Shown piece by piece: positions 14,238 to 43,020 of a stretch of DNA of 52,132 nucleotides. The DNA comes from Candidatus Woesearchaeota archaeon (GTDB lineage Archaea > Nanobdellota > Nanobdellia > Woesearchaeales > ARS49). The notes beneath the pieces are model-generated. The model did not search any database, was not told the origin of the DNA, and worked only from the letters and a program-made list of their open reading frames with translations. A program made the position numbers and the translations under genes. The DNA lies in contig JAHFOI010000001.1 of assembly GCA_023266895.1 (NCBI GenBank), positions 1-52,132 on the forward strand. The letters are read 5' to 3'. Each line of letters starts with the position of its first letter. Positions within the stretch are counted from its first letter, which is position 1.

Positions 14238-14346
14238 AGTTCTTCCTCTCAAGCTGCATTTTTAAAAGAATGCCACTACTAAAGAAGAGTTACTGGAGTT
14301 TGTGGAGCGAGGGGATATGCTATTTTTTGAGCACTCCTCCGCAAGG

Positions 14347-14355
14347 TTTTTATAA
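14347..14355 (+). promoter_or_regulatory. TATA box for leaderless mbf1
   Basis: tttttataa lies 22-30 nt upstream of ATG 14377. Confidence 0.55.
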
Positions 14356-14376
14356 CTCTATCTATGGGAAAAATTC

Positions 14377-14871: not shown

Positions 14872-14936
14872 TGAGATGTCTGAAAAACTCTTATGATGAG
14901 CAGAATTTAAAGAGCTCACATTTTTGAATGATTTTT

Positions 14937-16388: not shown

Positions 16389-18514
16389 TACTCAAACCTC
16401 GGATTCACATCGCCGAAACAAGTTTGGTTTGCAAATTCTTGAAACAATAAATAACCATAGGGGTATGGTGCTGAATGAAATAAGACTGCGTGTCGTGATG
16501 AATTTTTGGCAAGCCAGTCGCGTACGTGTACATAATCATCCTGAGAATAAACGCGTACTGCAATGGTGTTGGCGCCAATAGACTCTGCCGTGCTTGTTAT
16601 GGTACTGGTTTGATTAAAGTCAGTGATTTGTACTGAGACAATATCAAGAGGAAATGTAGTGCGTAATTCTTCAAAATAATTTGTAGGCGTTTGGTAATAC
16701 CACAATGCGTATGGTAGAGGGGTGGCGTTTTCAACAACCACAACTTGGTTGCGTTGAAGCACACATTCCTGGCCTCCAATAATTGTTGTGTTATTTACGA
16801 AATGAAGTGGTGGGCTTGGTAGTAATTTCAGGTCATGTCCGAGACCAAGAAATGCATACTTGTCAGGAAAGCATACGACCGTAATGTCATGTTCAGAAAG
16901 ATATTGTGCTGCTGCAACTTTGCCTGGGTGATCACAGTCGCTCCAGACAACAGAAGCATTCAAACGAATTGCTTGTTCAACTAGCATGTTCACGCCATGC
17001 GTATCTATTAGTAAGCCAATATTCTTGTGCAAAAATCTTGCAGTAGGATATGAAACTTTATCTAAAGGAACTTCAAATCTGAACACTCCTTTTTCATCAG
17101 GAGCATACCACTTGCCTGAGGAGTATGCTACCATGGTTCCTGTGGCAGTCAATGGAATGATACGTGTTTTGTTGAGCACATTTAGCAAACGACCTCCTTC
17201 GTGCCATCCAATATCTGCACGTAGTTCCTCTTCAGAAAGTGTATGTTCTTCAGAAAAAACATGTAGCACTTTATTACCCCAAGGGCTTTGATTTAAGTGT
17301 CCTCCGAGCCAGTCTCGTTTCACTCTGTCAGTTTGAGGCAGGACGCGCGCACCGTCAAGCAGTGTAAGACGTGAACTGCCAAGCACAACACGTGATGCAT
17401 TATGCGCACCTGTTGAGCTGGTAGGAGCAATAGAAAGTGGTGCGAAATGTATGGTTGGTTCTTGATTATTTGCAAGTGCATGAAGAATATCTGCGCGCCA
17501 TTGCACTCCTAATTTACGCCATGCTGATTCTGCTTGTGTAAGCGCAATTGCGTTATTGCGACCGCATCTCACGCTGGCAATTGTTTCTAATAATAATGCG
17601 CGTTCTTCAAGAACAATTGCACTTTCAGGCATGTTTGTGAGCGCATCAAGGGCAGCATCATAATCGGCTAATGAATTGCAAATCAATGTTCTGTTCGCAA
17701 ATACTCTTCCTGCAAGTAATTTCAGATCACCTTTTGCAAAAGAATCATTAACGTGAATCAATAGTTTTTCAGTTTGATTTTTAAACCAGGTCATGTTGGT
17801 TCCAGCACTTCGCAGTACATATCCAAAATCAATAGGTGCATAGGGGTCTGGCGTTCGTAAAATGCTCAAAATTGTTGCATTAAGTACTCCTTGATATGCA
17901 AAACCTTCGTGTTTTACGTTGCCTATAATGATGGTGGGTGCGCGAGAAACATTATTCGCTTTGGCAAATAGTCCGACAAGTGGTTCGTCAATGTAGTCTT
18001 TGTCAATGGATAGCACAATTACTTTATCTTCATATGCTTTGCTTAAGTCTTCAAGCACAAAACCTTCACGTACGCTTAATTCATTATCAACGCTGTAAAA
18101 AAACACAATTGGAATGTAAGGATTGCCGCATTCAGTGTTCACGCCTTGTACCAAAGAAAAAAACCTGAGCTGCAAGAGAATATATTTACGTTTCAAATAA
18201 TCAAAGTCTTTTTTGTTCAGCCAGCTTGCAGAAGAGTATCCGCTTAAGTCAGCGCCTACTTGGCGCATTTGCTTTTTTAGTTCAACAACTCGCTCACGAA
18301 GTAAATTGCATGGCGCAGCACTCACTGTTTGAGTGAATTCTTGTTCTACAACAAAACTCAACCTGCCAATTTCGTGTGAAACCATTTGGTTAAGAATAGT
18401 ATCAACACGCACAAAATCAAGTCCGTAATTGAGCAGAATGCCTACCATAAAAATACTAAGAGTTATGAAAAATGAAAGCATGATTAGTTCAGCAAAAGAA
18501 TGGTCAAGTGGCAT
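16388..18514 (-). CDS. Membrane-anchored 708-aa extracytoplasmic protein, N-terminal module paralogous to 20482-21177
   Basis: N-terminal TM helix (FAELIMLSFFITLSIFMVGILL). Shares the module C-x-L-x-R-x-R-V-x-E-L ... LKRxYxLLQxR ... N-[VI]-SRAP with the 231-aa protein. Confidence 0.6.
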   Translation of the reverse strand: MPLDHSFAELIMLSFFITLSIFMVGILLNYGLDFVRVDTILNQMVSHEIGRLSFVVEQEFTQTVSAAPCNLLRERVVELKKQMRQVGADLSGYSSASWLNKKDFDYLKRKYILLQLRFFSLVQGVNTECGNPYIPIVFFYSVDNELSVREGFVLEDLSKAYEDKVIVLSIDKDYIDEPLVGLFAKANNVSRAPTIIIGNVKHEGFAYQGVLNATILSILRTPDPYAPIDFGYVLRSAGTNMTWFKNQTEKLLIHVNDSFAKGDLKLLAGRVFANRTLICNSLADYDAALDALTNMPESAIVLEERALLLETIASVRCGRNNAIALTQAESAWRKLGVQWRADILHALANNQEPTIHFAPLSIAPTSSTGAHNASRVVLGSSRLTLLDGARVLPQTDRVKRDWLGGHLNQSPWGNKVLHVFSEEHTLSEEELRADIGWHEGGRLLNVLNKTRIIPLTATGTMVAYSSGKWYAPDEKGVFRFEVPLDKVSYPTARFLHKNIGLLIDTHGVNMLVEQAIRLNASVVWSDCDHPGKVAAAQYLSEHDITVVCFPDKYAFLGLGHDLKLLPSPPLHFVNNTTIIGGQECVLQRNQVVVVENATPLPYALWYYQTPTNYFEELRTTFPLDIVSVQITDFNQTSTITSTAESIGANTIAVRVYSQDDYVHVRDWLAKNSSRHAVLFHSAPYPYGYLLFQEFANQTCFGDVNPRFE

Positions 18515-18564
18515 AAGAACTGAGTAAAAAGACCGCTTTAAAGAGTTTTTGCTTTACCTGTGCT

Positions 18565-18579
18565 TTGGTGAAAATCTCG
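18565..18579. repeat. 15-nt direct repeat, left copy (ttggtgaaaatctcg)
   Basis: An exact copy recurs at 20197-20211. The two copies bracket the plus-strand dehydrogenase gene. Confidence 0.8.
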
Positions 18580-18879
18580 CATTGCTCGCCTTGTTGTCAG
18601 TTTACCTTCCGGAATATCGCCCTAAATGGAGGCTAATTCGAACTTTGGTTCTCGAAGCATTGAGCTTGGAAAATCCAAGATTCAATGCAACCCCCTTCTC
18701 AGTACGCAATATGCTGTGGGAGGTTCTCAATAACTATGGTTCTTGGATCCTTCAAGTGTAAAACACATTGGAGGCTTCACGGAAAGGAAGCAAGGGACTT
18801 TTTCACCAGAGCTGCAAATTTTTCATATAATTCTAAAAAAAGCCTTCGCAAGATTTTTAAGCGGCAGAGTGTGAAGAAA

Positions 18880-20190
18880 ATGAATATGAGTTGGGATAAT
18901 GTAGTTGTTGGGGTTGTAGGACTTGGATATGTTGGACTGCCACTTGCCGTTAGAATGAGCAAATTCTTTAAAACTATAGGCGCTGATGTAAATCAGCAAA
19001 AAATAAATTCGTTAGTTCACGGCATTGACTACACTGGTGATGTTGGTGATGCAATTTTACACGACGCCATTGAATCTGGAAATATTCAATTTACTAACCG
19101 TGCAGAATTGCTTAAAGGTGCAAATTTCATCATTGCAGCAGTGCCGACACCAGTAAGTAAGGCAAAAGTGCCTGACTTGTCCCCAATTCTCTCAGCTGCA
19201 AAAACAATTGGAGAAAACCTTCAGAAAGGCACAACTGTCGTGCTAGAAAGCACAGTTTTCCCTGGTGTTACACAAGAAATTTTTGGTCCGGCAATATCAA
19301 AGTATTCAAGTCTGCAAATGGGAGTAGACTTCTTTTTAGGATATTCGCCTGAACGAGTAAACCCAGGAGACAAAGAACACACCATCGACAAAATTGTCAA
19401 AGTAGTCTCAGGCCAGGATGAGAAAACTCTTAGTCTTGTGGCAGAAGTTTACTCAAAAATAATTTCGGCAGGAATTCATAGGGCATCATGCATTAAAGTG
19501 GCAGAAGCTGCAAAAGTAATTGAGAACACTCAGCGCGATTTAAATATTGCATTAGTGAATGAGTTTGCAAGAATTTTCAGACTGGAAGGCATTGACGTCG
19601 CAGATGTTTTAGCAGCAGCGGCAACAAAGTGGAATTTTCTAAATTTTACGCCCGGTCTTGTCGGAGGACATTGCCTACCAGAAGATCCATACTATTTGAC
19701 GCATCGTGCACGAGAAAAGGGCTACAACCCGTCAATCATACTTGCAGGCAGATATGTGAATGATACTATTGCAGAGGACATTGAGAAAATAATATTGCAA
19801 GGATTAAACACTAGAGGAAAAGCAGCAAGTGCAAGTAAATTATTAATCATGGGCCTAACTTTTAAGGAGAATGTAAATGACTGTCGACACTCAGGCGCAA
19901 AAGATGTTATTGATCGCTTAAGAGAGTGGAACGTAATATTAGATGGGTATGACCCTCAATTGACAGAAGAAACAATTTTGAAGGAATTTCGAGTGCAACC
20001 GCTTGATTTAAACAAACCCTGCCATAAGTATGATGGAATAGTATTAATTTCACCCCACAAAGAAATACTGAAATTCAACCTAAAGACATTAGCTTCTCAG
20101 TGTGCTGATAAACCAGTGTTATTCGACCTCAAACGCTCGTACAGTGCAATAGACGCTCAAAATGCAGGTTTTTTATACCTGCATTTGTAA
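18880..20190 (+). CDS. Nucleotide-sugar 6-dehydrogenase (UDP-glucose/GDP-mannose dehydrogenase family, TviB/WbpO-like)
   Basis: Rossmann motif VGLGYVGLPLA follows directly after ATG 18880. Catalytic GGHCLPEDPYYL is present. The 65-aa extension implied by the track start (18685) has no family counterpart. Confidence 0.85.
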   Translation: MNMSWDNVVVGVVGLGYVGLPLAVRMSKFFKTIGADVNQQKINSLVHGIDYTGDVGDAILHDAIESGNIQFTNRAELLKGANFIIAAVPTPVSKAKVPDLSPILSAAKTIGENLQKGTTVVLESTVFPGVTQEIFGPAISKYSSLQMGVDFFLGYSPERVNPGDKEHTIDKIVKVVSGQDEKTLSLVAEVYSKIISAGIHRASCIKVAEAAKVIENTQRDLNIALVNEFARIFRLEGIDVADVLAAAATKWNFLNFTPGLVGGHCLPEDPYYLTHRAREKGYNPSIILAGRYVNDTIAEDIEKIILQGLNTRGKAASASKLLIMGLTFKENVNDCRHSGAKDVIDRLREWNVILDGYDPQLTEETILKEFRVQPLDLNKPCHKYDGIVLISPHKEILKFNLKTLASQCADKPVLFDLKRSYSAIDAQNAGFLYLHL

Positions 20191-20196
20191 TTGGCG

Positions 20197-20211
20197 TTGG
20201 TGAAAATCTCG
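20197..20211. repeat. 15-nt direct repeat, right copy
   Basis: Identical to 18565-18579 and begins 6 nt after the dehydrogenase stop. Confidence 0.8.
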
Positions 20212-20289
20212 GAAGAATTATAGTGAATGACATAATTTTTTAGACAGTCAGCTTTCATTCGCTATTACGAACGGTTGCGAGAGTCTTGC

Positions 20290-20355
20290 AGACCTACGAA
20301 CCGAAGTGAGTATGGTTGAGCGTAGCGTGAGACCTACGAACCGAAGTGAGTATGG
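20290..20355. repeat. Two perfect 26-nt direct repeats, 40-nt period (agacctacgaaccgaagtgagtatgg)
   Basis: Copies at 20290-20315 and 20330-20355. A degenerate unit lies upstream (about 20263-20285, tacgaacggttgcgagagt), and a third GTGAGTAT occurs at 20383-20390. Confidence 0.85.
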
Positions 20356-20481
20356 ACAAGTATTGTATGAAAACTTTTGTCAGTGAGTATATAACCCAGT
20401 AGCAGCTAACGCAGCTATGAGGTGGGGACTTGATCCCTGCAGGAAAAATAAAAAACGTTTAGTATAAAAGATTGGTAGTGT

Positions 20482-21177
20482 TCAGTCAGTATGTGTCAGT
20501 TCAGGTTGCACTGGTGTAGGTGTTTGGCTTGTTGATACGTTTTTTTGGGCAGCAATGGCATTCTCAAGTGCTTCTTTGGTTGCAACAGTTTGGAATATCA
20601 TTTCATAATTTAGTACAAGTGCAGGTGCGCGAGAAATGTTGTAATATTCTTCTAAAAAGCGCAGGTCTTGAGAGTAATTAAACTCAAGGGCATACACTTG
20701 TGCACCATGTTTGTTCACGAGTTCATCAAGAATTTTGCCTTGTTCACTGCTTTCTTTGCTGTGTTGTGTGTAATAAAAAAGAATGACTGGACTTGATGAA
20801 TTGCAGTTTTCTGTAAGACGAAAGTTCAGGGTATATGTGCGAATTTGTAGTAAGTGATACTGGCGTTTTAATATATCATAATTAACGCCTAAGTCGTGGC
20901 GTGCGCTGTTTGTGCTTAGTAAGTTGCCTAAGTGATAGAGTTGGTCGCCGAGTTCATTCACGCGCTGGCGTGCAAGATCACAGCCTTGCGGTCCTAATGT
21001 TTTTACGAGCTCTTGCTCAAGTAAAAAGCTTTCTGTGTTGAGTTCAGTGTTTTTTAAAATCTTTGTTGCTTCTGAGAGTTTTGAGGTGCTCAAGCTCCAG
21101 CCGAGTAAAATGCCTAGTGCAAATGCAATGCATACTGCAAGTATTGTTGCAGTGAAAAAAAGCTGGCGTTTTACCAT
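20482..21177 (-). CDS. Membrane-anchored protein, paralog of the N-terminal module of 16388-18514
   Basis: ATG 21177 (MVKRQLFFTATILAVCIAFALGILLGW) overlaps the GT2 stop as ATGGTAA. An earlier track start would overlap GT2 by 157 nt. Confidence 0.6.
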   Translation of the reverse strand: MVKRQLFFTATILAVCIAFALGILLGWSLSTSKLSEATKILKNTELNTESFLLEQELVKTLGPQGCDLARQRVNELGDQLYHLGNLLSTNSARHDLGVNYDILKRQYHLLQIRTYTLNFRLTENCNSSSPVILFYYTQHSKESSEQGKILDELVNKHGAQVYALEFNYSQDLRFLEEYYNISRAPALVLNYEMIFQTVATKEALENAIAAQKNVSTSQTPTPVQPELTHTD

Positions 21178-22427
21178 TTTTTTTTGGTCCTCAGCAGGTC
21201 GTGCGCAAGTGATGCAATCCAGTGCATGCATGTTAGATATGGTCCAACAATAATATACAGCCAGATCTGTATTGCATGACGCAGTAGTTTTTCTTTCATA
21301 CGACGATGAGCCAGCACTAAAATCCACAAACCTAGTGCGCTGCCAAGAAGTATGGGAAGAAGCACTTGTACATTTTGTCCAATGAGAACTTCTTTCAGGT
21401 TAGGAAAATCAAGCACGTGATTAAGAAAATACCCATTTACACTCAGGCTTCGTGCAACAAAAGTGGTCCAGGAATCAATAACTCCGTATGATACAAAACC
21501 CATGGTAACTAAAAGCAAGACCACACTAATAACATTTAAGGGCAACTGAAACAAGCCAAGCAAACCGTAGTCTGGGTTACCAATGAGACGTCTATATTTT
21601 AGGTGATTATACAAAAAGCCACGAAACCAGCGCACTCGCTGACCCCAGAGTTTGCGAAAGGTATCTGGCACAAAGGTGTAGCCCAATGAGTGCTGGCTCA
21701 TTTTTATGTCATAGTGGTGTGCGCGTAAGCGTAGTCCCATTTCTAGATCTTCAGTAAGATTTTCTCTGCTTCCATCAAAACCACCCAAGGAACGCACAAC
21801 TCGTGTCCTAAAAATGCATAGCACTCCGTGTGAGAAAAAAAGAGTTCCCATTTTTCCAAAGAGTTGCCGTATTAAGTCGCTCAAAATATATTCTACGCGT
21901 TGTAGTTTTTCGTATATGTTTTTTGGATCATCAACTTTTATTGATGGAATAACTGCGCCAATACGTGGTGAATCAAACAAACTCAGGCTTATGCGTATGC
22001 AATTTGATGCGACACGACTGTCACAGTCAAGTACTGCAAAAAAGGTGCCTGATGCCTGCTCAAGTGCAGAGTTTACCGCTGCACCTTTGCCTTTGTTTAC
22101 TTTGTGACGTAGGAGTGTGATATTCATGTTTTTGTGGGAGTTCATAAACTGACGTACAATTTGCAGAGTATTGTCAGAACTTTTGTCATCAACAACAATA
22201 ATTTGCAATAATTCCTGAGGGTAGTCAAGTTGTTGGATTGATTCAAGTGTTCTTACAATACCTCGGCGACTGCCTTTTGCCCCATTAAGTACAGGTATGG
22301 CAATAGATACTGTTTCTTTTGGTGTGCACATGCGTATAGGTGCGTCTTGGCCAAAAAATGCAACACTTAACCACAAAATAGAAAGCCATAAGCTTACAAA
22401 GCTTACTGCCCAAAGAACATATTGCAT
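21171..22427 (-). CDS. Processive family-2 glycosyltransferase (QxxRW type, membrane-integrated)
   Basis: Motifs VVDDKSSDNT, DCDS and GQRVRWFRG, plus N- and C-terminal TM helices. Confidence 0.8.
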   Translation of the reverse strand: MQYVLWAVSFVSLWLSILWLSVAFFGQDAPIRMCTPKETVSIAIPVLNGAKGSRRGIVRTLESIQQLDYPQELLQIIVVDDKSSDNTLQIVRQFMNSHKNMNITLLRHKVNKGKGAAVNSALEQASGTFFAVLDCDSRVASNCIRISLSLFDSPRIGAVIPSIKVDDPKNIYEKLQRVEYILSDLIRQLFGKMGTLFFSHGVLCIFRTRVVRSLGGFDGSRENLTEDLEMGLRLRAHHYDIKMSQHSLGYTFVPDTFRKLWGQRVRWFRGFLYNHLKYRRLIGNPDYGLLGLFQLPLNVISVVLLLVTMGFVSYGVIDSWTTFVARSLSVNGYFLNHVLDFPNLKEVLIGQNVQVLLPILLGSALGLWILVLAHRRMKEKLLRHAIQIWLYIIVGPYLTCMHWIASLAHDLLRTKKKW

Positions 22428-32855: not shown

Positions 32856-33637
32856 GTTGTTGTTATTTTTCTGCAAAATGTGATAAATGCAGTGTGCCCT
32901 ATACTTATGCTTTTCGGATGCACCGCATCACCTTCAACTTTCCAAGAACGTTCAACTATTTCAATTGTTTTTCCAAGAAGTATTTCTTCATGTGCTCGTG
33001 CAGTATTGCAAAAAGATTGCACTTGGGGTACGCTTGGTGAATAGCTGACAAGCCATCCGCCAATCTTAATTGCGTTCACTGCATGAGGGAGGGCGCGCCA
33101 GGGTTCTGGCAAGTCAAGAATGATAACATCCATGTTTTTTTCAGAAATTTTTTCATACACACTGCCTTTTTTGAAGCTAATATTTGTGAGTCCGAGAATG
33201 TCTGCATTTTTTTTGGCCACGTCTTGAAATTCTTGATTTATATCATACGTCACTACTTTTTTGCAAATGTGTGCAAGGTAGCAGCTAAGCCAGCCAGAAC
33301 CTGTACCTGCATCAAGCACGGTACTTTCTTTGCCTATACCTGTTTCTGCTGCAATGATTCCCGCATCTTTTAGCATGATTGCCTGGGGTGTTTTTTTAAG
33401 GCGTCTAAATGTGTCGCTGAAGCCTGGAGTGAGTATGATGAACTCCTTGTGCATGCTGGTTTGTATTTTGCTTCCATCTTTTTTTTTAAGGTCTTTTTTT
33501 GCAATCACTCCATAGGTTGTGCTAAAATCTTTTGAGGTGTCGTGCACAGTGTACTCTTTTGGCTTGAGCACGGTTACTTCGCGTTTGAGTTCTTCAACAT
33601 ATGTTTTTTTTCCTTTGCTAATGAGGAGTCGGGGCAT
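32852..33637 (-). CDS. trmI: tRNA (adenine-N1)-methyltransferase TrmI/Trm61
   Basis: SAM motif VLDAGTGSGWLS, then DLPEPW. ATG 33637 (track start is TTG). Confidence 0.8.
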   Translation of the reverse strand: MPRLLISKGKKTYVEELKREVTVLKPKEYTVHDTSKDFSTTYGVIAKKDLKKKDGSKIQTSMHKEFIILTPGFSDTFRRLKKTPQAIMLKDAGIIAAETGIGKESTVLDAGTGSGWLSCYLAHICKKVVTYDINQEFQDVAKKNADILGLTNISFKKGSVYEKISEKNMDVIILDLPEPWRALPHAVNAIKIGGWLVSYSPSVPQVQSFCNTARAHEEILLGKTIEIVERSWKVEGDAVHPKSISIGHTAFITFCRKITTT

Positions 33638-33741
33638 AGTTTTGCGTGAGAACTGGTGGTTTAATAGGTTTGTTATTTGCTGGTCCAACTGCAATTTTAA
33701 GCGTAACGAAAAGGCATGTAAAAGCAGTTGTGTATTGGTGA

Positions 33742-33814
33742 AGCGGAGGGAGGGACTCGAACCCCCGGATAAACGCTCTGCAGGCGTTCCCCTTAGCCGC
33801 TTGGGTACCTCCGC
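33742..33814 (-). tRNA. tRNA-Cys (GCA)
   Basis: 73-nt cloverleaf. Acceptor GCGGAGG/CCTCCGC, anticodon stem AACGC/GCGTT, loop CTGCAGA, T-arm GGGGG-TTCGAGT-CCCTC. Discriminator is U, which is the Cys identity base. Confidence 0.8.
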
Positions 33815-33838
33815 GTGTGTGAAACAAAGTCTGAGGTG

Positions 33839-33846
33839 TATAAAAA
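33839..33846 (-). promoter_or_regulatory. TATA box for tRNA-Cys
   Basis: tttttata on the minus strand, 25-32 nt upstream of the tRNA 5' end. Confidence 0.55.
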
Positions 33847-33881
33847 GCTACTTCTTTGTGGTGTGACCTTTTGTCCAAATG

Positions 33882-33889
33882 TTTATAAA
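33882..33889 (+). promoter_or_regulatory. TATA box for tRNA-Arg
   Basis: tttataaa lies 25-32 nt upstream of 33914. Confidence 0.55.
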
Positions 33890-33913
33890 CATTAAGCAAG
33901 CCAAAACACGCAT

Positions 33914-34009
33914 GGGCCTGTAGCTCAGCTTGGATAGAGCGACAGCCTTCTACTGAGCGTGTGCTCATAAGATAGCTGAAGGTCGTGGGTTCAAATCCCA
34001 TCAGGCCCG
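33914..34009 (+). tRNA. tRNA-Arg (TCT) with 21-nt intron after position 37
   Basis: Acceptor GGGCCTG/CAGGCCC, D-arm GCTC..GAGC, anticodon loop C-T-TCT-A, T-arm GTGGG-TTCAAAT-CCCAT. 75 nt of exon plus the intron. Confidence 0.85.
33953..33973 (+). other. tRNA intron (canonical 37/38 position)
   Basis: ctgagcgtgtgctcataagat contains a 5-bp hairpin, TGAGC-gtgt-GCTCA. Confidence 0.7.
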
Positions 34010-34276
34010 TGAGTTTTAGCGAACGTGTTTGATGGCTACGAATAGCAATCAGTCTGTCATCAGGCAAGTTTTTTTTTGGGTGGGTGGGTTCTTTCTTGAT
34101 TTTTTTGGGCATATTTTTTAAAACTACGTGCATGAACTGCTGAACTCCGAAATTGTAGTTACCGCTGGTTGTAGGTTTTGTACCCATTGAGATTTATGCT
34201 TAATATCAGATTTTTTCGAAGAAACTCCTCTGGACTCAATCCATAGATTTATTAATCAGAGTTCTTATTTTTGTTT

Positions 34277-34708: not shown

Positions 34709-35242
34709 ATGACTGATCTGACTCGTTTAAGTGAAAAAGTATCAATTGCGGTGTCTGAAAAAGCATTTGTTGCGTCTCACACTCGTCGCGTTTTTTCTCT
34801 TGGTGAGGGACTTTGTGCAACGCTTTATGAAAATCAAGGCGCGGCAGATTTTTTCCATGGGCAACTCAAAAAACTTCATGCAGCAGTGAGAGTTCCTGAA
34901 CCAAAAGTGCTTGTACCTTTTGTGTTTTTTGGTGAGAAAAAGTATGCTCCTGTTATGGAGTATATTTCCGGCCTAACACTTGGCGAGTATGTTGCTGGTA
35001 AAAAGAGGCTTCCTCTTCCTGTTTGGCAGCAACTTGCTGAAGGTATTGATAAACTAAAAAATGCAGGTTTTGTCATTATTGATAATGCGCTGAATAGAAA
35101 TGTGTTGGTTTCTGAGGGGGCTTTATTTTTTGTTGATCCTGAAGCATATAAGTCTTCTGCGCAGCTATCCTGGTTTGCACGTTGCTGGTATTGTGCAAGA
35201 ACGGCTGTTGAACGTTCCTACTATCATGCCTTAGTTAAGTAG
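34709..35242 (+). CDS. Small atypical protein-kinase-like fold protein
   Basis: Hinge-like VMEYISG, then FVIIDNALNRNVLV and FFVDPE. tttataat lies 23-30 nt upstream of the ATG. Confidence 0.3.
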   Translation: MTDLTRLSEKVSIAVSEKAFVASHTRRVFSLGEGLCATLYENQGAADFFHGQLKKLHAAVRVPEPKVLVPFVFFGEKKYAPVMEYISGLTLGEYVAGKKRLPLPVWQQLAEGIDKLKNAGFVIIDNALNRNVLVSEGALFFVDPEAYKSSAQLSWFARCWYCARTAVERSYYHALVK

Positions 35243-35350: not shown

Positions 35351-36490
35351 TCACACCACCCACTGATTTTTAAGCAGTAACTTTGATGTTTTGTACAATT
35401 CTTCTTTGAATTTGTGATAGTGTTTTTTTGGCACACTGGCTCCTGCTGCAGGTATGTGACCTCCGCCTCGTGCTCCGGATATGTTTTTGATTGCACAGGT
35501 GAGAAGTTCATTTGTGGCAATTTTGCTGTCATTGCGTCGTGCACTAATACAGATTGGATCTTGTGAGCTATCCACAATAATGACTGTTTTGTGTGCATGC
35601 TTGTGGCCTAGTATTGTGCTGAGGGTGCCTGTTATTCTATATGATGGCTTCATTTCATAGAGATAAATGCCATCTTTTTGTTTGACAGTGGCAAATTGGT
35701 GTATGTGTTTTTTGATTTCTTTCTCTACTGCACTTCTATATTTTTTGAGCGTGCTTGCATTGAATTCTTTCCATGTTTTTGCAGAGAGTAATTCATCATA
35801 GCATCTTGCGGTGTATTTTTTATTGAAACAAAGTGCGAGTGAAATTGTGGAAGGTACTTTTCCCAGTTCTGTGTCAAACCAGTTTTTCTTTGAGAGGATA
35901 CGTAATCTTTTGAGCAATGCAGTTAGGTATGTACTCCACTGCATAAATCCTGAGTCCCCTATGAGTCCTGCGCCAGCAATCCACTCAAGATCTCGTAGGT
36001 CACAAATGCGTGAGCCTAAATCATATGCCATTTTTGCAGTTGCATAATATGCAGGATTTGGTTCTTTCCAAATAAGTTGTGGTTTGATGAGTAGTACTTT
36101 TTTGTTTTTTGGCGTACTAAGAATTTTGTGATGATCGATTATGATTATGTGCGCAAACTGTGCTGCTTGATTAAGTGTTTGTGTATTTTCTTCAACAGGC
36201 AAATCTGCAGTAATAATGTGTGTGATCTTGTTTTTTTTCAGCTGAGTTATCATGTCTGGACTTATGTTGTGATTTCCATCTTCTCGCGCGAGTCTGAGGT
36301 CTACTGTTTTTCCGCGTATTCGCTCAATGAGTCGCGTAAGAATTGCTGCAGCGCATATTCCATCAGGATCTGCATCGTGAATAATTGCGATGCGGTCTTT
36401 TGTGTTCATTGCCCTCATTCGCATATCCCATGCGTGTAGTAGCGCTGGATTGAGAGGGGTCCACTTTTTCGGCAAAGGTAAGGTTTCCAT
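35351..36490 (-). CDS. DHH/DHHA1 family phosphoesterase (NrnA/RecJ-like)
   Basis: Motifs HDADPDG, ITADL, IIIDHH, GDSG and DHHA1 GGGHIPAAGA. Starts 5 nt after the upstream gene's stop. Confidence 0.8.
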   Translation of the reverse strand: METLPLPKKWTPLNPALLHAWDMRMRAMNTKDRIAIIHDADPDGICAAAILTRLIERIRGKTVDLRLAREDGNHNISPDMITQLKKNKITHIITADLPVEENTQTLNQAAQFAHIIIIDHHKILSTPKNKKVLLIKPQLIWKEPNPAYYATAKMAYDLGSRICDLRDLEWIAGAGLIGDSGFMQWSTYLTALLKRLRILSKKNWFDTELGKVPSTISLALCFNKKYTARCYDELLSAKTWKEFNASTLKKYRSAVEKEIKKHIHQFATVKQKDGIYLYEMKPSYRITGTLSTILGHKHAHKTVIIVDSSQDPICISARRNDSKIATNELLTCAIKNISGARGGGHIPAAGASVPKKHYHKFKEELYKTSKLLLKNQWVV

Positions 36491-36495
36491 GGTAT

Positions 36496-37371
36496 TTATG
36501 CAGCGAGTTTTCTCGTTGTTACTCCTTGTTTAGTATTTTTTGAAATATCACGTATTTCTCTCTCAAAGCATTGTAAAACTCCTTCAAGACTTTGGACTGA
36601 AGGTTCATGAGTTATGATTACTGCACCAACAGCGTCATATCCTTTTTCTCCAGAAATTGTTGGGAATAACGCAGAGAAAGTGAGCTCTTGTATTGCATGA
36701 GTCATACATTCTTGAATAACCCCTGGTGATATGCCGTACGTTACGACAGCAACATCAGGAGTGTTTTCTTTATCCGCGCGTAATTTCGCCATGACAATTG
36801 TACCTGTGATTGATTCAATTGATTTAGAAATAGCATCTATTCCTGTTGTAATCGCGTTTTCTTTTGCTTTTGAACCATATTGGTCTGCAACTATTTGTGA
36901 GCTCAAACTAACTAATACCAGATTTACAGGGTTGCATGTTTGTTCACTTGAGTGCACAAAGTATCTCAGCAGCATATTTGCTTCTTCGGCTCCAAACTGC
37001 ATTTTAGCTTTTTTGTTAGCAGTAGCAAGGCGAGTTACACTAGTCATATTTCCTCGGATACGTTCATATACTTCTGGTGCGTCAGGAGGCAAATCACTTC
37101 TTTTTGCCATTTGTAAAACCTGTTTCGCAGTTTTTGTTGCTTTATTAGAAGACATGCCTCTTGTCAAAGAAGTGCATATTAGTGCGTATGCTGCAAATAC
37201 CTCTTCTGCAGTAAATGTTTTTTGAGGCCAGGCATGTTGTCTTTCTGGCGTCTCAATTCCTTGGTATCTTCGTGGCTCATGAGGACACTCAGTGCCAATG
37301 TATGCTTCAGGAACAACCGGTTCTGGTCTACTCTGTTGTTCATGTCCTGAATAAATTGTTAATTGGCTCAT
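36496..37371 (-). CDS. Orphan 291-aa protein between the GGDEF and DHH genes
   Basis: ATG is preceded by GAGGA. No motif recognised, and no PilZ RxxxR/DxSxxG pair seen. Confidence 0.6.
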   Translation of the reverse strand: MSQLTIYSGHEQQSRPEPVVPEAYIGTECPHEPRRYQGIETPERQHAWPQKTFTAEEVFAAYALICTSLTRGMSSNKATKTAKQVLQMAKRSDLPPDAPEVYERIRGNMTSVTRLATANKKAKMQFGAEEANMLLRYFVHSSEQTCNPVNLVLVSLSSQIVADQYGSKAKENAITTGIDAISKSIESITGTIVMAKLRADKENTPDVAVVTYGISPGVIQECMTHAIQELTFSALFPTISGEKGYDAVGAVIITHEPSVQSLEGVLQCFEREIRDISKNTKQGVTTRKLAA

Positions 37372-37450
37372 GTTTTTCCTCGTTTTTTCTTTGTTTTTTC
37401 TTCAGAACATGCTGGTGTGCATGACTGAATACTGATCATACTCAGTCAAA

Positions 37451-37500
37451 TATATTTATAACGTACTTCTTGAACGACAAATACGTTAAATACGTTATCT
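37451..37500. promoter_or_regulatory. Conserved 50-nt control element, copy A (TATA-like + TACGTTA heptamers)
   Basis: 39/50 ungapped identity with 38601-38650. Contains TAACGTA (37459-37465) and two direct ATACGTTA (37481-37488, 37490-37497). Confidence 0.6.
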
Positions 37501-37522
37501 TTGTTTTATATTTATTTTCGCG

Positions 37523-38461
37523 CTACCGTTGTGTGTAACATTGCCCGACCGCACCCATGATACCTGCAGCGTATGCTGCGGCTTGTGAAACAAATGCAAG
37601 CATTCTTCTACCATAATTTCGCAGTGGTTTCATTGTTTCTTGTGTTCTGCCCTGCATTTTTAGCATGCGTAATGCGTCAGCATAGTTGTCAAGAGGCGTT
37701 CTTGGATCAAGAGTAACTACTCTTGGAATTATTCTTATTCCTTGTTTCGCACCTATTTTTGCAGCATACATATTGGTATCAGCACATGCCTTCAATTTTG
37801 CAAATATTTCTGGGTCTGCTGCGCAATTACCAGCGTAGTGCACTGCTCCAACATCGTATGCAACAGTAATTATCTGCTCTCCTGTACGTACAGGTATTTT
37901 TTCTCCTGCATGAATTAGTCGCTCTTCAATCGCGCGTGCAATGTCAAGGCTAAGTTCTTTTCCTGGCTCTCCTTTTTCTATGACCGTAAATTCATCTCCT
38001 CCTGGTCTGTAAACTCCAGTACCAGTACGTGTTGCACTTACAAGTGTTTTTGCAATTGCTTGAAGAGCTCTATCTCCAGTAGGGTGACCATACTGGTCAT
38101 TTACCTGCTTGAAATCTCTAACGTCAACGTATGCAATTAAACAAGGAATTCCTTCTCGCACAGCAGTTTCTAAATCTGCATCAAATTTTCTTCTATTGTA
38201 TACTCCTGTTAATGCATCTCGTGTTGCAATTTCTTCGGCTCGCTCAAGCAGTCTGGCTTTTGAGCTTATTACGCGATCTGCCCTTCTGATTTTTTGGCCT
38301 TGTTCTGCGCAGTATTGTGCGATTTTCAGGATTGCCCTTCCAGGATCTTCTCCCAGAATTTCTAAAACTTGTAAGCGAAGATTTGGTGGCATTCCACTTG
38401 TTTCAAGTAAACTTTCAATGTTGGGAATGTCTTGTGACTGTATGTCTGTTTGAACTGGCAT
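37523..38461 (-). CDS. GGDEF-domain diguanylate cyclase-like protein
   Basis: Motifs RDALTGVYNRRKF, VDVRDFKQVNDQYGHPTGDRAL and GGDEF (37988-38002). GAGGTGA Shine-Dalgarno-like motif before the ATG. Confidence 0.85.
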   Translation of the reverse strand: MPVQTDIQSQDIPNIESLLETSGMPPNLRLQVLEILGEDPGRAILKIAQYCAEQGQKIRRADRVISSKARLLERAEEIATRDALTGVYNRRKFDADLETAVREGIPCLIAYVDVRDFKQVNDQYGHPTGDRALQAIAKTLVSATRTGTGVYRPGGDEFTVIEKGEPGKELSLDIARAIEERLIHAGEKIPVRTGEQIITVAYDVGAVHYAGNCAADPEIFAKLKACADTNMYAAKIGAKQGIRIIPRVVTLDPRTPLDNYADALRMLKMQGRTQETMKPLRNYGRRMLAFVSQAAAYAAGIMGAVGQCYTQR

Positions 38462-38600
38462 GTCTTCACCTCATTTTTTTGTTTGTTGTTCTTTTTTTTC
38501 AGTCTTGGTGTGACTTTTTTGTAATTGTAAGGCCAAAACCCGCATTTCTGCAGGGTTAAGGTCTGGTTGTTGTCATGAAGTTAGTATTCCAAAAGATTAA

Positions 38601-38650
38601 TATATATGTAACGTACTTTCTATACGAAAAATACGTTTCATACGTTAATT
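38601..38650. promoter_or_regulatory. Conserved 50-nt control element, copy B, in the divergent GGDEF / AbrB-PhoU intergenic region
   Basis: tatatatgTAACGTActttctatacgaaaaATACGTTtcATACGTTAatt, ending 11 nt before ATG 38661. Confidence 0.6.
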
Positions 38651-38660
38651 TTGGCAACCC

Positions 38661-39593
38661 ATGACTTCCATACGAAAACTCGTCAAAGCAGGCCCTGCAT
38701 CACACACCATTTCACTGCCTAAAGAGTGGCTTGAACAGCATGGTGTGAAGACTGGAGATTCATTGTATGTAGAAGAAACTCCTGACACGTTGGTTGTGAA
38801 AACAGAATCAAGAAAAGTGCAGGTTGTTGAGCAGGAGTGTACCATTGCTTTGGACAACAAATCAGATTCTTCAGTCCAACGCGAGCTTGCTTCAGCATAT
38901 GTTAACAACAATCGGACCATTCGTTTTTCAGGAAAATCAGCTGAGTCTCGCTTGCCTGTAGTGAGAGCTATGCTTCAAGGTTTTGTTGCATTGGAAATTA
39001 CTGAGCAAACCCCCACGGTCTTGGTTGTCCGTGACTTGTTAGATTTGGAAGAGATAAGTGTGGAAAAAACAATTCGGAGAATGGAAATGATGGTACGTAC
39101 CATGCTTGTAGAGTGCTGCAATCCTGATGTGCAAGAGCAGTTACGTGTGAAAGATGAAGAAGTCAATAAGCTTTATTTTCTGCTTGTGCGTCTGATACGT
39201 AGCGCGTTATCAGTGCCTGGCATGGCAGAACGTTTTTCTCTCACACCAGTCAAGGCAGGGCAGGTATGGTTTTTAATCACCTATCTGGAAAGTCTTGCGG
39301 ATTATGCCCAGTCAGTGCACGGTTCTTTTGCACGAACACCAAAAGCAAGCATAAAAATGGTAAAAGAGCTTGTTGCTGAGCTCAAGATAGTGTTTGAAAA
39401 GGCAATGACCAGTTTTTGGAAAAAAGAAAAATCAAGCGCAGATGGAGTGCTTCAATCAAGACAGTCATTGCTTGCGTCATGCACAACAATTTCTGAACAT
39501 CACAAAGATGCAGTGCTTGCAGAAATTGCTGAGCAGGCAAAGGCAATTGTTTCGCTCATCCTCAGCATTGCACGACTGGTTATTGATGAATAA
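38661..39593 (+). CDS. AbrB/SpoVT-domain + PhoU-like regulator
   Basis: N-terminus RKLVKAGPASHTISLPKEWLEQHGVKTGDSLYV is a swapped-hairpin AbrB-type motif. It is followed by a helical PhoU-like repeat region. Confidence 0.7.
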   Translation: MTSIRKLVKAGPASHTISLPKEWLEQHGVKTGDSLYVEETPDTLVVKTESRKVQVVEQECTIALDNKSDSSVQRELASAYVNNNRTIRFSGKSAESRLPVVRAMLQGFVALEITEQTPTVLVVRDLLDLEEISVEKTIRRMEMMVRTMLVECCNPDVQEQLRVKDEEVNKLYFLLVRLIRSALSVPGMAERFSLTPVKAGQVWFLITYLESLADYAQSVHGSFARTPKASIKMVKELVAELKIVFEKAMTSFWKKEKSSADGVLQSRQSLLASCTTISEHHKDAVLAEIAEQAKAIVSLILSIARLVIDE

Positions 39594-39688: not shown

Positions 39689-40063
39689 TTAATTCTTTTT
39701 TCTCATGCGTTCAAATGTTTCAGGAATGTCAATGATGTATTTGCCATCAGCCAGTTTGAAAATAAGTGGTTCTTTTTTGAACAAGTGAACAAGATCAATT
39801 TCATATTTTCCGGGTTTTATGATATTAATACTTTCTAAATCGAGCACAACTGGTGCAGCAGGATTTTCTGTGCCAAGAATATCATACACATCACTTTCTA
39901 GTTCTTGTTTTGCTTCAGTGCTGAGCGTTACGGTAGTCTGTTGCTTGTTGAGTTTTTCTTTCTTGATGTAGAAAAACAAACGCGCACCGCACGTGCAACC
40001 GCTCAGAATTTCTTTTGCGCCATCATCATACATGGCATCACAGCGCACACACTGATGTGGCAT
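39689..40063 (-). CDS. Zn-ribbon protein (archaeal COG3364-like)
   Basis: CVRCDAMY...CTCGA zinc ribbon. Last gene of the GTPase/DUF2073 triad. Confidence 0.6.
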   Translation of the reverse strand: MPHQCVRCDAMYDDGAKEILSGCTCGARLFFYIKKEKLNKQQTTVTLSTEAKQELESDVYDILGTENPAAPVVLDLESINIIKPGKYEIDLVHLFKKEPLIFKLADGKYIIDIPETFERMRKKN

Positions 40064-40064
40064 G

Positions 40065-40439
40065 TTATTTCCTTCGCTCTCTCGTGAGAAGCTCTATTTT
40101 GTTTGGATCTTTTCGTATGCTTTTCACAACACTTGCCGGACCAATAATTGTCAAGCCTGCTTTTTCTCCCAGCATAAGACTTACCACACCATTTTTTATT
40201 CTGCTGAGCCCGCTTGTGTTCGGGTTTGTTGGCTGAATCACTGCAAGTTCTATGCCTTTAAATTCTTTGTTTATCTCTTCCATTGTTGATTTGATGAGTT
40301 CTGCTTCTTCTTGCTTGCGTAATCTTCCTTGAAGCAGTACTATTTTATTTTCTTTTGCGAGGTTGAGCAGTTTTCGTATGCGTCCGAGACTGCTGAGCTC
40401 TAGGATTTCATGGTAAGGAACAACACGCAGTGTTACCAT
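40065..40439 (-). CDS. DUF2073-like protein
   Basis: Position within, and similarity to, the conserved archaeal GTPase-DUF2073-Zn-ribbon operon (from memory of the family). Confidence 0.5.
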   Translation of the reverse strand: MVTLRVVPYHEILELSSLGRIRKLLNLAKENKIVLLQGRLRKQEEAELIKSTMEEINKEFKGIELAVIQPTNPNTSGLSRIKNGVVSLMLGEKAGLTIIGPASVVKSIRKDPNKIELLTRERRK

Positions 40440-40441
40440 TG

Positions 40442-41071
40442 CTATCCTCCTGTGAGTTTGAACAAGGCGCTATAAAAAGCGTCCGTGTGCTTGCCATACT
40501 TTGCGCTTACACCCACTACTTCATACTGAGGGAATGCTGATTTGATGCGTTTCATGCTTGCTTTTTTCAGGTCTACTTTGTTTGCAACAAGTAAGACTGG
40601 TATGTCTCGTGCTGCGAGATTGCCAATAATCGTAACATTGACTTGACTGTAGGGATCTTGTGTTGCGTCAAGCACGACGAGAACAGTGTCCACTTCATCT
40701 AGCCATTTAATGCTGTCAATAACTCCTTTTGTTGCTTCTTTGGCGCGTCGTTTTGCTTTTGATTCAGCAAGTCCTGCGCGCATAAAATCTTCATAATCTA
40801 TTTTTGTGGCTATGCCTGGTGTGTCAACAAGATTAAAAAGAAGTTCTTTATCTCCATTTTTGATGCAGATTTGTTCTTTAATATGCACTTCTCTGGTTTC
40901 ATGAGGTATAGGGCTCACGCTACCCATTTCCTCGCCAAGCCAATCAACGCAAATTCTATTTGCAAGGGTTGTCTTGCCTGAGTTTGGCGGTCCATATAGT
41001 CCAAGCTTTACGCTTCCTCGCTTGCCAAAAAGTGAGCGGAAGACTTTGTTAAAGAATCGTGTTATTCCCAT
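40442..41071 (-). CDS. Small GTP-binding protein
   Basis: G1 GPPNSGKTT, G3 DTPG, G4 NKVD. Confidence 0.8.
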   Translation of the reverse strand: MGITRFFNKVFRSLFGKRGSVKLGLYGPPNSGKTTLANRICVDWLGEEMGSVSPIPHETREVHIKEQICIKNGDKELLFNLVDTPGIATKIDYEDFMRAGLAESKAKRRAKEATKGVIDSIKWLDEVDTVLVVLDATQDPYSQVNVTIIGNLAARDIPVLLVANKVDLKKASMKRIKSAFPQYEVVGVSAKYGKHTDAFYSALFKLTGG

Positions 41072-41832: not shown

Positions 41833-43020
41833 ATGCAACCATGGACAAGTACGTATGCGCCTAAAAATCTTGCTGATTTTTCTCAGAAAGAAGTAGTGGA
41901 AAAACTACAATTGTTTCTCTCAACATTTGCCAAGCAAAAGAAAAAAGCAGTACTAGTGTATGGCGCTTCAGGAACCGGTAAGACATCGTTGATTCATATT
42001 CTTGCGCAACAACAAAACTGGGAAGTTGTTGAAGTAAATGCTTCAGATGTGCGCAATGCGGAGGGTATTAATTCAAAATTATTATGTGCTGCACAGCAAC
42101 GTAGTCTTTTTTCTTCAGGTAAAATTCTTCTTGTTGATGAAGTAGATGGTATTGCTGGACAAAATGATCGTGGCGGGGTCACTGCTCTTGCTGCAGTGAT
42201 GAAGTCCACGTCGTTTCCTATGATTTTAACTGCAAACGACCCATTTGATCAAAAATTTTCTCCTATTCGTAAACTTGCAATGCTAGTGGAATTTCCTTTA
42301 TCAAGCCCTGCAGAGATATCTAGCCTCTTGATCAGTATCGCTAATGCAGAAAATCTTGTGTTTGATGAACACGCAATTCGGTCACTGGCGCGTCGTTGTG
42401 GCGGGGATCTACGTGCTGCAGTAACTGACTTGCAGATTTTGTCTCACCGTACGATCACTTCTTCTGCACTTGAATTGCTTGGAGATCGTGATAAGTCTGA
42501 AGAAATGACTCATGCACTTGGCCGTATTCTTAAACAGTCTGATCCAAAAATTGCACTCTCTGCGTTTGAACACGTAACTGAAGATCTTGATGATGCGTTT
42601 TTGTGGCTTGAAGAAAGCATTCCTAAAGAATACAAAAACTCTGCAGATCTTGCTCGTGCATTTGATGTGCTTAGTCGTGCTGATGTGTTTCGCGGTAGGA
42701 TTTTGCGTCGTCAGCATTGGCGTTTTCTTGCCTACGAAAATGATCTGCTTACTGCAGGTGTTGCGTGTGCTAAGGATGCACCCTATCGCACTTCTGTTGA
42801 GTATGAACGTTCTGAGCGTATCTTAAAATTGTGGATTGCAAAACAAAAGTATGCCCTGCGCTTGTCTTTTGCAAGTAAGGTTGCTGAGGTATGTCATTGT
42901 TCAACTCGTCGTGCAGTGCAAGATGTTCTTCCTTTTTTGCGTTCAATAGCGCGAAAATATTCTGTTGCGTCTTCATTAGAACTTGATGATGAACAAGCAG
43001 AATGGTTGAAGGTTTCATAA
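41833..43020 (+). CDS. rfcL: Replication factor C large subunit
   Basis: PWTSTYAPKNLADF, Walker A GASGTGKTS, Walker B LLVDEVDGI. Confidence 0.85.
   Translation: MQPWTSTYAPKNLADFSQKEVVEKLQLFLSTFAKQKKKAVLVYGASGTGKTSLIHILAQQQNWEVVEVNASDVRNAEGINSKLLCAAQQRSLFSSGKILLVDEVDGIAGQNDRGGVTALAAVMKSTSFPMILTANDPFDQKFSPIRKLAMLVEFPLSSPAEISSLLISIANAENLVFDEHAIRSLARRCGGDLRAAVTDLQILSHRTITSSALELLGDRDKSEEMTHALGRILKQSDPKIALSAFEHVTEDLDDAFLWLEESIPKEYKNSADLARAFDVLSRADVFRGRILRRQHWRFLAYENDLLTAGVACAKDAPYRTSVEYERSERILKLWIAKQKYALRLSFASKVAEVCHCSTRRAVQDVLPFLRSIARKYSVASSLELDDEQAEWLKVS

Follow-up and report, generated by a model that had tools for sequence, protein, structure and literature searches.

Do archaea possess genuine GGDEF-type cyclases, and, if so, in what genetic company? 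The question is raised by a 52,132-nucleotide (nt) stretch of a Candidatus Woesearchaeota genome (GenBank assembly GCA_023266895.1, contig JAHFOI010000001.1, positions 1 to 52,132; hereafter the window), in which a GGDEF protein, an orphan protein and a DHH/DHHA1 phosphoesterase are encoded in one direction and an AbrB-PhoU regulator in the other. In a 2023 review of archaeal second messengers, cyclic di-GMP (c-di-GMP) figures as undescribed in archaea and diguanylate cyclases as confined almost entirely to bacteria (PMC10249747). One archaeal GGDEF was known to Galperin et al. (2018), who added a warning about contamination (PMC5847659). In the words of Römling (2022), GGDEF proteins of archaea 'need to be confirmed in archaeal contigs' (PMC10086821), and a study of groundwater gives counts of diguanylate cyclase genes for ultra-small metagenome-assembled genomes (MAGs), with no further detail (PMC9938205). 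The initial annotation of this DNA had called the arrangement not a described archaeal system, and our full-text literature search combining GGDEF or diguanylate cyclase with Woesearchaeota or DPANN likewise returned no description of this module. What is new is a GGDEF module in an unexpected domain of life; bacterial GGDEF cyclases are already known. We find that the locus is genuine, chromosomal and archaeal and that the module is inherited within a Woesearchaeota clade. With about even confidence, we read the GGDEF cyclase, orphan, DHH protein and AbrB-PhoU as a conserved signalling module of these DPANN archaea, the mechanism of which we infer below. The four genes, the GGDEF position and both spacers are all where the initial annotation had placed them: the cyclase gene is followed after exactly 151 nt by the orphan gene, the stop codon of which lies 5 nt before the DHH start in a different reading frame.

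The cyclase gene (37523-38461, minus strand) encodes a protein of 312 amino acids (aa) that matches the Pfam GGDEF family (PF00990) at 95.6 bits (cut-off 23.8) and TIGR00254 at 93.6 bits (cut-off 37.4). The motifs RDALTGVYNRRKF and DFKQVNDQYGHPTGD and the GGDEF motif itself (residues 154-158, nt 38002-37988, minus strand, read directly from the translation and in alignment) are all present, and the protein can be aligned with the Thermotoga maritima diguanylate cyclase and PleD structures. Its conserved catalytic and guanine-binding residues in these alignments are D113, K118, N121, D130, GGDEF 154-158 and K235, the last of which stands in for the Arg of the GRN motif, also when the diguanylate cyclases of the PDB are included. 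The guanine-specificity residues N121 and D130 (GHPTGD) presumably correspond to N335 and D344 of PleD; guanine specificity is conferred by Asn plus Asp, with Ser found in the Hypr synthases of cyclic GMP-AMP (cGAMP). The protein is thus built of a helical N-terminal region, an intact active site (A-site) and a hydrophobic C-terminal tail. An intact GGDEF protein had been claimed, and since all catalytic residues were found both within the family and against the PDB enzymes, the claim holds: the cyclase appears catalytically intact, and synthesis of c-di-GMP is well supported by its sequence. The RxxD allosteric site (I-site), which is common in diguanylate cyclases, not obligatory, and serves only c-di-GMP binding, is missing (RTGT in the window, RAST in the relative P0001, RTET in the related locus L002). 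Because the C-terminus is hydrophobic and conserved, a direct reading suggests membrane tethering. Compared with bacterial diguanylate cyclases (T. maritima TM1011 tDGC, PleD, WspR and DgcB), the window protein has the same complete A-site, guanine-specific Asn and Asp and helical stalk before the domain, but it carries no REC, PAS or GAF sensor, has lost RxxD and ends in the hydrophobic tail, and its gene, on the chromosome of an archaeon, is preceded by a TATA promoter of archaeal type.

Several independent copies show that the locus is not a peculiarity of one assembly. Composition runs unbroken through the locus: the GC content of the module is 0.40-0.41, the same as in the remainder of the window, and the tetranucleotide profile over the module gives r 0.94-0.97, the window mean being r 0.935. 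An identical cyclase-orphan-DHH array is present in L001, an independent Logan assembly, and in the related organism L002 the order is RFC...OapABC, AbrB-PhoU, GGDEF, orphan, DHH, GCD14, M32 and ABCE1, which was seen on an 82.6-kb NCBI contig as well as on a JGI contig. Identity between window and L002 amounts to 90% for OapB, 76% for AbrB-PhoU, 62% for DHH, 40% for the cyclase and 34-36% for the orphan. Two short contigs carry parts of the array, namely P0001, with a cyclase 64% identical and a downstream gene beginning after 157 nt, and L088, in which a GGDEF-bearing cyclase gene is followed by the operator described below and an orphan homologue. The flanking archaeal markers reported earlier were also recovered with Rfam and Pfam: a 96-nt tRNA gene whose anticodon loop is interrupted by a 23-nt insert (intron) (33914-34009, plus strand; Rfam tRNA 56.4 bits), the origin-associated protein triad of OapC, OapB and Oap-type GTPase (39689-41071, minus strand; Pfam OapC 84.5 bits, OapB 62.1 bits, MMR_HSR1) and RFC (41833-43020, Pfam).

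How far this neighbourhood extends was assessed by scanning a DHH alignment against one genome per GTDB species, which gave 80 loci with about 20 kb per genome; gene content was scored by tblastn and clustering of open reading frames (ORFs), and taxonomy is as in the record titles (Woesearchaeota, Nanoarchaeia and other DPANN). The neighbourhood proved to be kept in related archaeal MAGs far more widely than the initial annotation had expected. A GGDEF gene adjoins the DHH gene in 28 of the 80 species-level DPANN loci, usually together with AbrB-PhoU. Where AbrB-PhoU stands beside DHH (33 loci), a GGDEF gene is found within 3 kb in 24; three of the nine others end at a contig end less than 1 kb downstream of DHH, and four additional DHH-GGDEF loci have no visible AbrB-PhoU. 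None of the 45 DPANN loci with more distant DHH homologues has a GGDEF gene near DHH. The commonest gene order is OapABC, then AbrB-PhoU divergent from DHH, with GGDEF following DHH on the same strand, the genes being separated by as little as 5 nt or overlapping. A second order (L034, L036 and L039) has GGDEF downstream of AbrB-PhoU, both divergent from DHH, and in the third (window, L002, L026, L028 and L029) AbrB-PhoU is divergent from a GGDEF-like gene, with DHH further downstream of the latter. Because the genes stay together in three gene orders, their linkage argues for a functional association and not for passive synteny. The Oap triad is the syntenic anchor of the module in Woesearchaeota, with synteny in at least 25 loci. 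A single, recent event of horizontal transfer into one MAG was considered as an explanation and rejected, since the GGDEF-DHH linkage is clade-wide.

On a neighbour-joining (NJ) tree of DHH proteins, most GGDEF-linked loci form one large clade and a few are more basal. The loci clearly devoid of GGDEF form one nested subclade, which is consistent with a single loss of the GGDEF gene. L005, the locus nearest to the window and L002 on this tree, has DHH followed by a 481-aa GGDEF protein. The GGDEF proteins in the usual downstream position reach 138-148 bits against the Pfam GGDEF model, and they have N-terminal sensor regions, which match Pfam PocR in the long form and look GAF-like by eye, with no Pfam match, in the short form. 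Members of this main Woesearchaeal clade mostly read GGEEF, and RxxD is kept in about 12 of 26. On an NJ tree with a bacterial sample made up of the top matches to the window protein, the downstream Woesearchaeal GGDEFs are monophyletic (75% bootstrap).

A few further features of these loci deserve mention. Many third-party-annotation MAGs titled 'uncultured Methanosarcinales archaeon' (L008-L013, L017-L019 and others) show the Woesearchaeal OapABC/AbrB-PhoU/DHH/GGDEF order with Oap proteins about 70% identical, and these record names are probably wrong. Most Woesearchaeal loci, but not the window module, encode small membrane-anchored Cys-rich proteins with an N-terminal transmembrane (TM) helix and G-x-x-C ... 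CC, both in the interval from OapC to AbrB-PhoU and in that from DHH to GGDEF (L007 7620-8517 and 11094-11360; L014 11095-11457; L028 6526-6840 and 11130-11639); the two from L007 were scanned and had no Pfam match. Beside GGDEF, L028 (12706-13359, minus strand) and L034 encode a protein with an HD domain (Pfam HD 24.3 bits) that lacks a GYP motif and could be an alternative phosphohydrolase. Many loci have two to three tandem paralogues of 160-200 aa after an Obg-like GTPase downstream of GGDEF (L007 13665-15312; equivalents in L006, L009, L012, L028, L029, L036, L037 and L042), and two of them were scanned with no Pfam match.

What controls the module? The initial annotation had noticed the same element of about 50 nt upstream of both minus-strand units, and this observation is correct: the repeat measures 55 nt per copy, with 80% identity between copy A (37449-37503, minus strand, cyclase stop to orphan start) and copy B (38599-38653, minus strand, between AbrB-PhoU and the cyclase gene), and its core motifs occur at two places only in the window, where 0.00-0.02 chance matches are expected. 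The operator core, AACGTA-N16-TACGTT, lies at 37460-37487 in copy A and at 38610-38637 in copy B. Both copies read TAACGTAT-nn-AACGTAT ... GTACGTTA on the minus strand, with a TATA-like box 3-4 nt further on; copy B consists of TAACGTATgaAACGTAT...GTACGTTA and then the TATA-like CATATATATTAA, and the core of copy A is followed by the TATA-like TAAATATATT. The four copies of the window and L002 align, with AACGTAT, AAGTACGTTA and ATATATT invariant, and the position of copy A is kept in L002 and L088. The exact palindrome is also found, once per locus, in 11 other species (L006, L007, L009, L012, L013, L022, L025, L026, L027, L036 and L039). It lies no more than about 35 nt from the AbrB-PhoU start codon in ten of these, where it precedes a GTATATATAAAT-type TATA box facing the divergent gene, and about 200 nt upstream in L022. 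Together with the two palindromes in the window, two in L002 and one in the cyclase-orphan gap of L088, these are the only occurrences in about 1.2 Mb of locus sequence. Loci without GGDEF bear a CGTAC-type variant.

By this architecture, a palindrome beside a TATA box, the repeat is a predicted promoter plus operator. The half-sites abut the B recognition element (BRE) and TATA box of the rightward promoter and bracket an A/T-rich stretch expected to hold the AbrB-PhoU promoter, so that one bound factor could control both directions. The shared upstream element indicates putative co-regulation with the divergent AbrB-PhoU gene. Separately, an ATGA(C/T) start, for example ATGACAACAACC, is conserved about 25-30 nt downstream of each TATA box and would open a leaderless mini-ORF (window ~38560-38575 and ~37395-37425; L002 7840-7855 and 9085-9100); the one before the orphan has 24 codons and ends in ATGA on the orphan start codon. 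This start could be a transcription start site or initiator signal, or a regulatory upstream ORF.

The AbrB-PhoU gene (38661-39593, plus strand) encodes a protein of the AbrB (SpoVT)-PhoU transcription-factor type, as the initial annotation had proposed: the Pfam MazE_antitoxin/AbrB domain matches the window protein at 32.9 bits, and PhoU, sub-threshold in this protein (21 against 23.5), is confirmed at the family level, where 16 of the 17 orthologues match it (best E 7e-12); the PhoU part has a weak PDB match to 2i0m. The divergence of the regulator from the cyclase is true of the window, but outside the window lineage AbrB-PhoU mostly pairs divergently with DHH. An archaeal AbrB-PhoU of the same domain architecture, TK2245 of Thermococcus kodakarensis, has been annotated as a regulator (PMC7325993). 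Our literature search found no characterised target or ligand for any archaeal member; for the present one, by contrast, we can propose a palindromic operator, which is conserved, and a set of targets.

The 291-aa orphan (36496-37371, minus strand) has no Pfam or NCBIfam match, with Pfam searched down to E≤10. An exhaustive search of 1.8 billion representatives gave three real homologues only, adding two real relatives to the query that a word-indexed search had returned alone; a further candidate, P0190, was discarded as a spurious repeat protein, and scanning the orphan alignment against metagenomes returned just the contig already known. Weak signals connect the protein with the GGDEF family. 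BLASTP against the cyclase gives a weak collinear match (E 0.09) at VNDQYGH / VADQYGS, and hhalign against the GGDEF alignment gives E 0.0019 and a probability of 14% over 128 collinear columns (residues 142-283), spanning strand beta-1 to the C-terminal helix. A two-sequence hidden Markov model scored negligibly against individual GGDEFs, save for the recurrent V-x-D-x-YG match. AlphaFold2 (AF2) was useless on the single sequence (predicted local distance difference test score, pLDDT, 36) and with a three-sequence alignment gave pLDDT 64.6 and a predicted template-modelling score of 0.62, with pLDDT 72-87 over most of the C-terminal domain core. All of the top 50 Foldseek matches of this model in the PDB are GGDEF domains, WspR, DgcB, PleD, DosC and GcbC among them (E ~2e-5, probability 1.0, target-normalised template-modelling score 0.55-0.71 for isolated domains). 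Thus the orphan, which had been described as having no recognisable domain, indeed lacks a family match, but the model reveals a degenerate GGDEF fold behind an N-terminal helical part. The GGDEF hairpin is replaced (...RADKENTPDV... in the window, ...GEGEGDLF... in L002). The orphan is possibly a paralogue of the cyclase. A 31-nt DNA repeat (71%) and a second BLAST segment (E 23), both weak matches, align the pre-domain helices of the two, and since an operator copy also precedes both GGDEF-fold genes, a tandem duplication of the unit [operator-GGDEF gene] is tentatively hinted at.

A degenerate GGDEF immediately before DHH also occurs in L028 and L029, and an intact one in that place in L026. 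GdpP (YybT), the c-di-AMP phosphodiesterase of Firmicutes, has the architecture TM-PAS-degenerate GGDEF-DHH/DHHA1. The window resembles it in that a degenerate GGDEF-fold unit stands, in the same order, upstream of the DHH/DHHA1 unit, but here these are separate polypeptides encoded 5 nt apart in an archaeal host, with no TM or PAS domains, a DHH protein that is RecJ-like by sequence, and an active-type cyclase and AbrB-PhoU regulator attached. We regard the likeness as an architectural analogy, not as shown homology. The orphan may be an effector; it is no less likely to be a regulatory partner, either of DHH, in the manner of GdpP, or of the cyclase.

The DHH gene (35351-36490, minus strand) encodes a RecJ-like protein of 379 aa that matches Pfam DHH (41.6 bits) and DHHA1 (29.4 bits), both over cut-off, and its DxD, D, DHH, D and GGH/GGGH motifs are invariant in 25 homologues. 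Stand-alone DHH/DHHA1 enzymes complete the degradation of cyclic dinucleotides (c-di-NMP) in bacteria. The window protein shares the two-domain DHH-DHHA1 build of NrnA, Pde2, PggH, TmPDE and Rv2837c, with all catalytic motifs intact, but its sequence similarity to them is weak. The tightness of the operons, with 5-nt gaps and overlaps, argues for a functional link between DHH and GGDEF, and together with the GdpP-like pairing it suggests that the enzyme may open c-di-GMP or clear pGpG.

From these elements a mechanism can be proposed for the signalling module. AbrB-PhoU would bind the operator. This site overlaps both the BRE/TATA of the cyclase and orphan-DHH promoters and the promoter region of AbrB-PhoU itself, so that binding would co-regulate, and probably repress, the three units, the cue being a ligand that the PhoU domain senses. 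The cyclase, tethered to the membrane, would dimerise and convert two GTP into c-di-GMP, presumably free of product inhibition because the I-site is missing. The DHH/DHHA1 protein would hydrolyse c-di-GMP and/or pGpG besides a housekeeping nuclease or nanoRNase role, and the dead GGDEF protein would serve as its nucleotide-sensing or scaffolding partner, making the pair a split analogue of bacterial GdpP.

A number of results weigh against this proposal. First, no PilZ, EAL or HD-GYP domain was found among 30 window ORFs (Pfam) or in seven loci, and an Rfam scan of the window and seven loci for c-di-GMP riboswitches gave tRNAs only. The 'self-contained' module of the initial annotation is therefore not borne out, as no receptor or output has been identified. 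Its idea of the orphan as effector gains no support from the motifs either: in the hhalign register the orphan has no A-site, metal-binding Asp or RxxD, and nucleotide binding is unsupported, non-canonical binding being possible; with both A-site and RxxD missing, an effector role is unproven. The GGDEF fold of this catalytically dead protein comes from a medium-confidence model built from three sequences. AbrB-PhoU is the obvious candidate for binding the operator, by virtue of its position only. The window cyclase, moreover, groups with that of L002 (99% bootstrap) outside the main Woesearchaeal GGDEF clade (0%), its other nearest relatives are bacterial at about 38% identity, and its GC content at third codon positions is low (0.25). 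Given the missing grouping and this low value, the window-type cyclase may represent a second, separate acquisition that replaced the ancestral gene. The closest relative outside the clade on a long contig, P0004, lies in a bacterial context of LigA and GatC, and the cyclase is ultimately of bacterial origin.

The strongest points on this side concern the DHH protein. Compared with solved structures, the family profile matches PfRecJ (1e-20), MjaRecJ2 (3e-18) and GAN (4e-18) best; TmPDE, which is NrnA-like, follows at E 4e-6 over the DHH domain only and the arCOG01566-type PAP phosphatase 8a8k at E 5e-4, and no GdpP, Pde2 or Rv2837c structure matched at E≤1e-3. Judged by its profile, the family has its nearest kin in archaeal RecJ/GAN rather than in NrnA, GdpP or Pde2. 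It is spread across DPANN MAGs, also where no GGDEF gene adjoins it, and in one subclade the DHH and AbrB-PhoU pair survives with no GGDEF gene nearby. Orthologues lie between mre11 and rad50 in L031 and L038 (around 5800-10100), between dnaK and dnaJ in six loci (as in L057 1192-6548, grpE-dnaK-DHH-dnaJ) and one gene from nucS in other DPANN. Because the family persists apart from GGDEF and sits in the mre11-rad50 and dnaK-dnaJ operons, the basic role of DHH appears to be independent of GGDEF and its core job to be other than c-di-GMP turnover; most likely it is a small RecJ-like exonuclease or nanoRNase. A second RecJ/GAN paralogue was found neither in the window nor in the loci, which at about 20 kb per genome is uninformative genome-wide. 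As a side observation, the mre11-rad50 placement suggests a RecJ-like end-resection role in lineages that may lack NurA.

These results lead to the alternative that survives best, namely that DHH is a housekeeping RecJ/GAN-like nuclease of repair or replication, or a nanoRNase, with AbrB-PhoU as its regulator and no turnover of c-di-GMP. The GGDEF proteins would then be linked as cyclases whose c-di-GMP signals to or from the nuclease and the replication-repair machinery, or would merely share a promoter. We consider this explanation possible but somewhat doubtful. RecJ ranks first in NCBIfam as it does among the structures, but the scores fall far below the equivalog cut-offs (RecJ_archaeal 83.8 against 360; GAN 43.7 against 850). 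The archaeal RecJ/GAN/Cdc45-like nucleases (PfRecJ 5x4h, TkoGAN 5ghr, MjaRecJ2 6tvv) provide the best sequence matches, and the DPANN orthologues are placed in DNA-repair contexts, standing beside herA, mre11, Oap genes and RFC in addition to the places named above; NucS, RFC and Oap genes are all encoded in the window itself. The window protein, however, is 50-120 aa shorter than the matched archaeal RecJ/GAN chains (432-500 aa), so that their extra domains are presumably missing, and it belongs to an operon with GGDEF genes. Persistence of the AbrB-PhoU and DHH pair without an adjacent GGDEF gene fits a housekeeping role, but the overlapping or 5-nt DHH-GGDEF junctions, kept through three rearrangements, favour a shared pathway, and the dead GGDEF right before DHH recurs (window lineage, L028 and L029) in a manner that mirrors GdpP. 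Of the earlier proposal that DHH is the dinucleotide turnover enzyme, the intact DHH/DHHA1 motifs and the tight GGDEF operons stand; the protein is RecJ/GAN-like and not dedicated to that task, which comes near to the generic nuclease that the initial annotation had named as its own refutation.

A bolder version appears unlikely. In it c-di-GMP would, in a large Woesearchaeota clade, be an archaeal second messenger wired to a RecJ/Cdc45-like nuclease whose gene adjoins the origin-associated (Oap), RFC, HerA and Mre11 genes; DHH, gated by a split dead-GGDEF sensor, would be both a new c-di-GMP phosphodiesterase and a messenger-controlled replication/repair nuclease, and AbrB-PhoU would be the first archaeal regulator of a cyclic-dinucleotide operon.

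Distinctly improbable, in our judgement, is that the GGDEF proteins yield a product other than c-di-GMP, such as cGAMP or linear pppGpG, or have a purely regulatory role through binding of GTP or ATP, like the degenerate GGDEF of GdpP. Such a view would agree with the fact that c-di-GMP has yet to be detected in any archaeon (PMC10249747), with the lack of a known receptor or EAL/HD-GYP enzyme nearby and with a cyclase that has no I-site. Yet at the specificity position the cyclase has Asp (GHPTGD) where Hypr GGDEFs have Ser, no catalytic residue is missing, and the I-site persists in nearly half of the main-clade members counted above. An anti-phage defence island of nucleotide cyclase and effector nuclease, suggested by a cyclase adjoining a nuclease-like enzyme and a small regulator, is very hard to credit, since PADLOC returned no match for five proteins and, whereas defence islands are mobile, this locus keeps its chromosomal place beside Oap genes and RFC from species to species. 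Finally, that the GGDEF genes are bacterial contaminants of an archaeal bin or the product of a chimeric assembly, a worry that Galperin et al. (2018) voiced for archaeal GGDEF matches (PMC5847659) and with which the bacterial affinity (about 38% identity) of the nearest extra-clade cyclases would agree, is effectively refuted already by continuous composition, concordant independent assemblies, archaeal genes on both sides of the GGDEF gene in 28 species-level genomes, and an archaeal-type TATA promoter and operator common to the GGDEF and archaeal AbrB-PhoU genes.

For one clade, then, the contamination question surrounding archaeal GGDEFs is settled, since their genes lie in an archaeal neighbourhood that is conserved across 28 or more species-level genomes. 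Woesearchaeal GGDEFs bear sensor domains and I-sites and stand behind an archaeal promoter-operator, and c-di-GMP signalling in archaea, hitherto undescribed, becomes directly testable; a candidate turnover route that is neither EAL nor HD-GYP and a 28-bp operator with a candidate regulator are on offer. If the signalling module is confirmed, c-di-GMP signalling would be extended to life's third domain, in DPANN cells that depend on hosts and for which attachment decisions are central, and the widespread, uncharacterised archaeal AbrB-PhoU regulators would gain a first target.

Elsewhere in the window, a 189-aa ORF (33618-34187, minus strand) that overlaps the tRNA genes at 33742-33814 and 33914-34009 is almost certainly spurious. 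A 177-aa ORF (34709-35242, plus strand), convergent with DHH, has no Pfam or PADLOC match; it is kept only in the near-identical Logan contig and lies outside the module in L002. Exopolysaccharide synthases are classic bacterial c-di-GMP targets. A surface-polysaccharide gene set is encoded at 11455-22427, about 15 kb from the module, and nothing ties it to the module; it comprises an ABC-2 transporter (11455-14252), a PMT_2 glycosyltransferase (14937-16388), a UDP-glucose dehydrogenase (18685-20190) and a synthase-like glycosyltransferase of family GT2 (21171-22427), in which set no PilZ domain was detected. Four large ORFs, one of them of 1688 aa (3547-8613), lie at 240-10297, where four shorter ORFs were scanned with no Pfam match at E≤1e-6. 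The first 7.5 kb of the window have its most deviant tetranucleotide profile (r 0.84-0.87).

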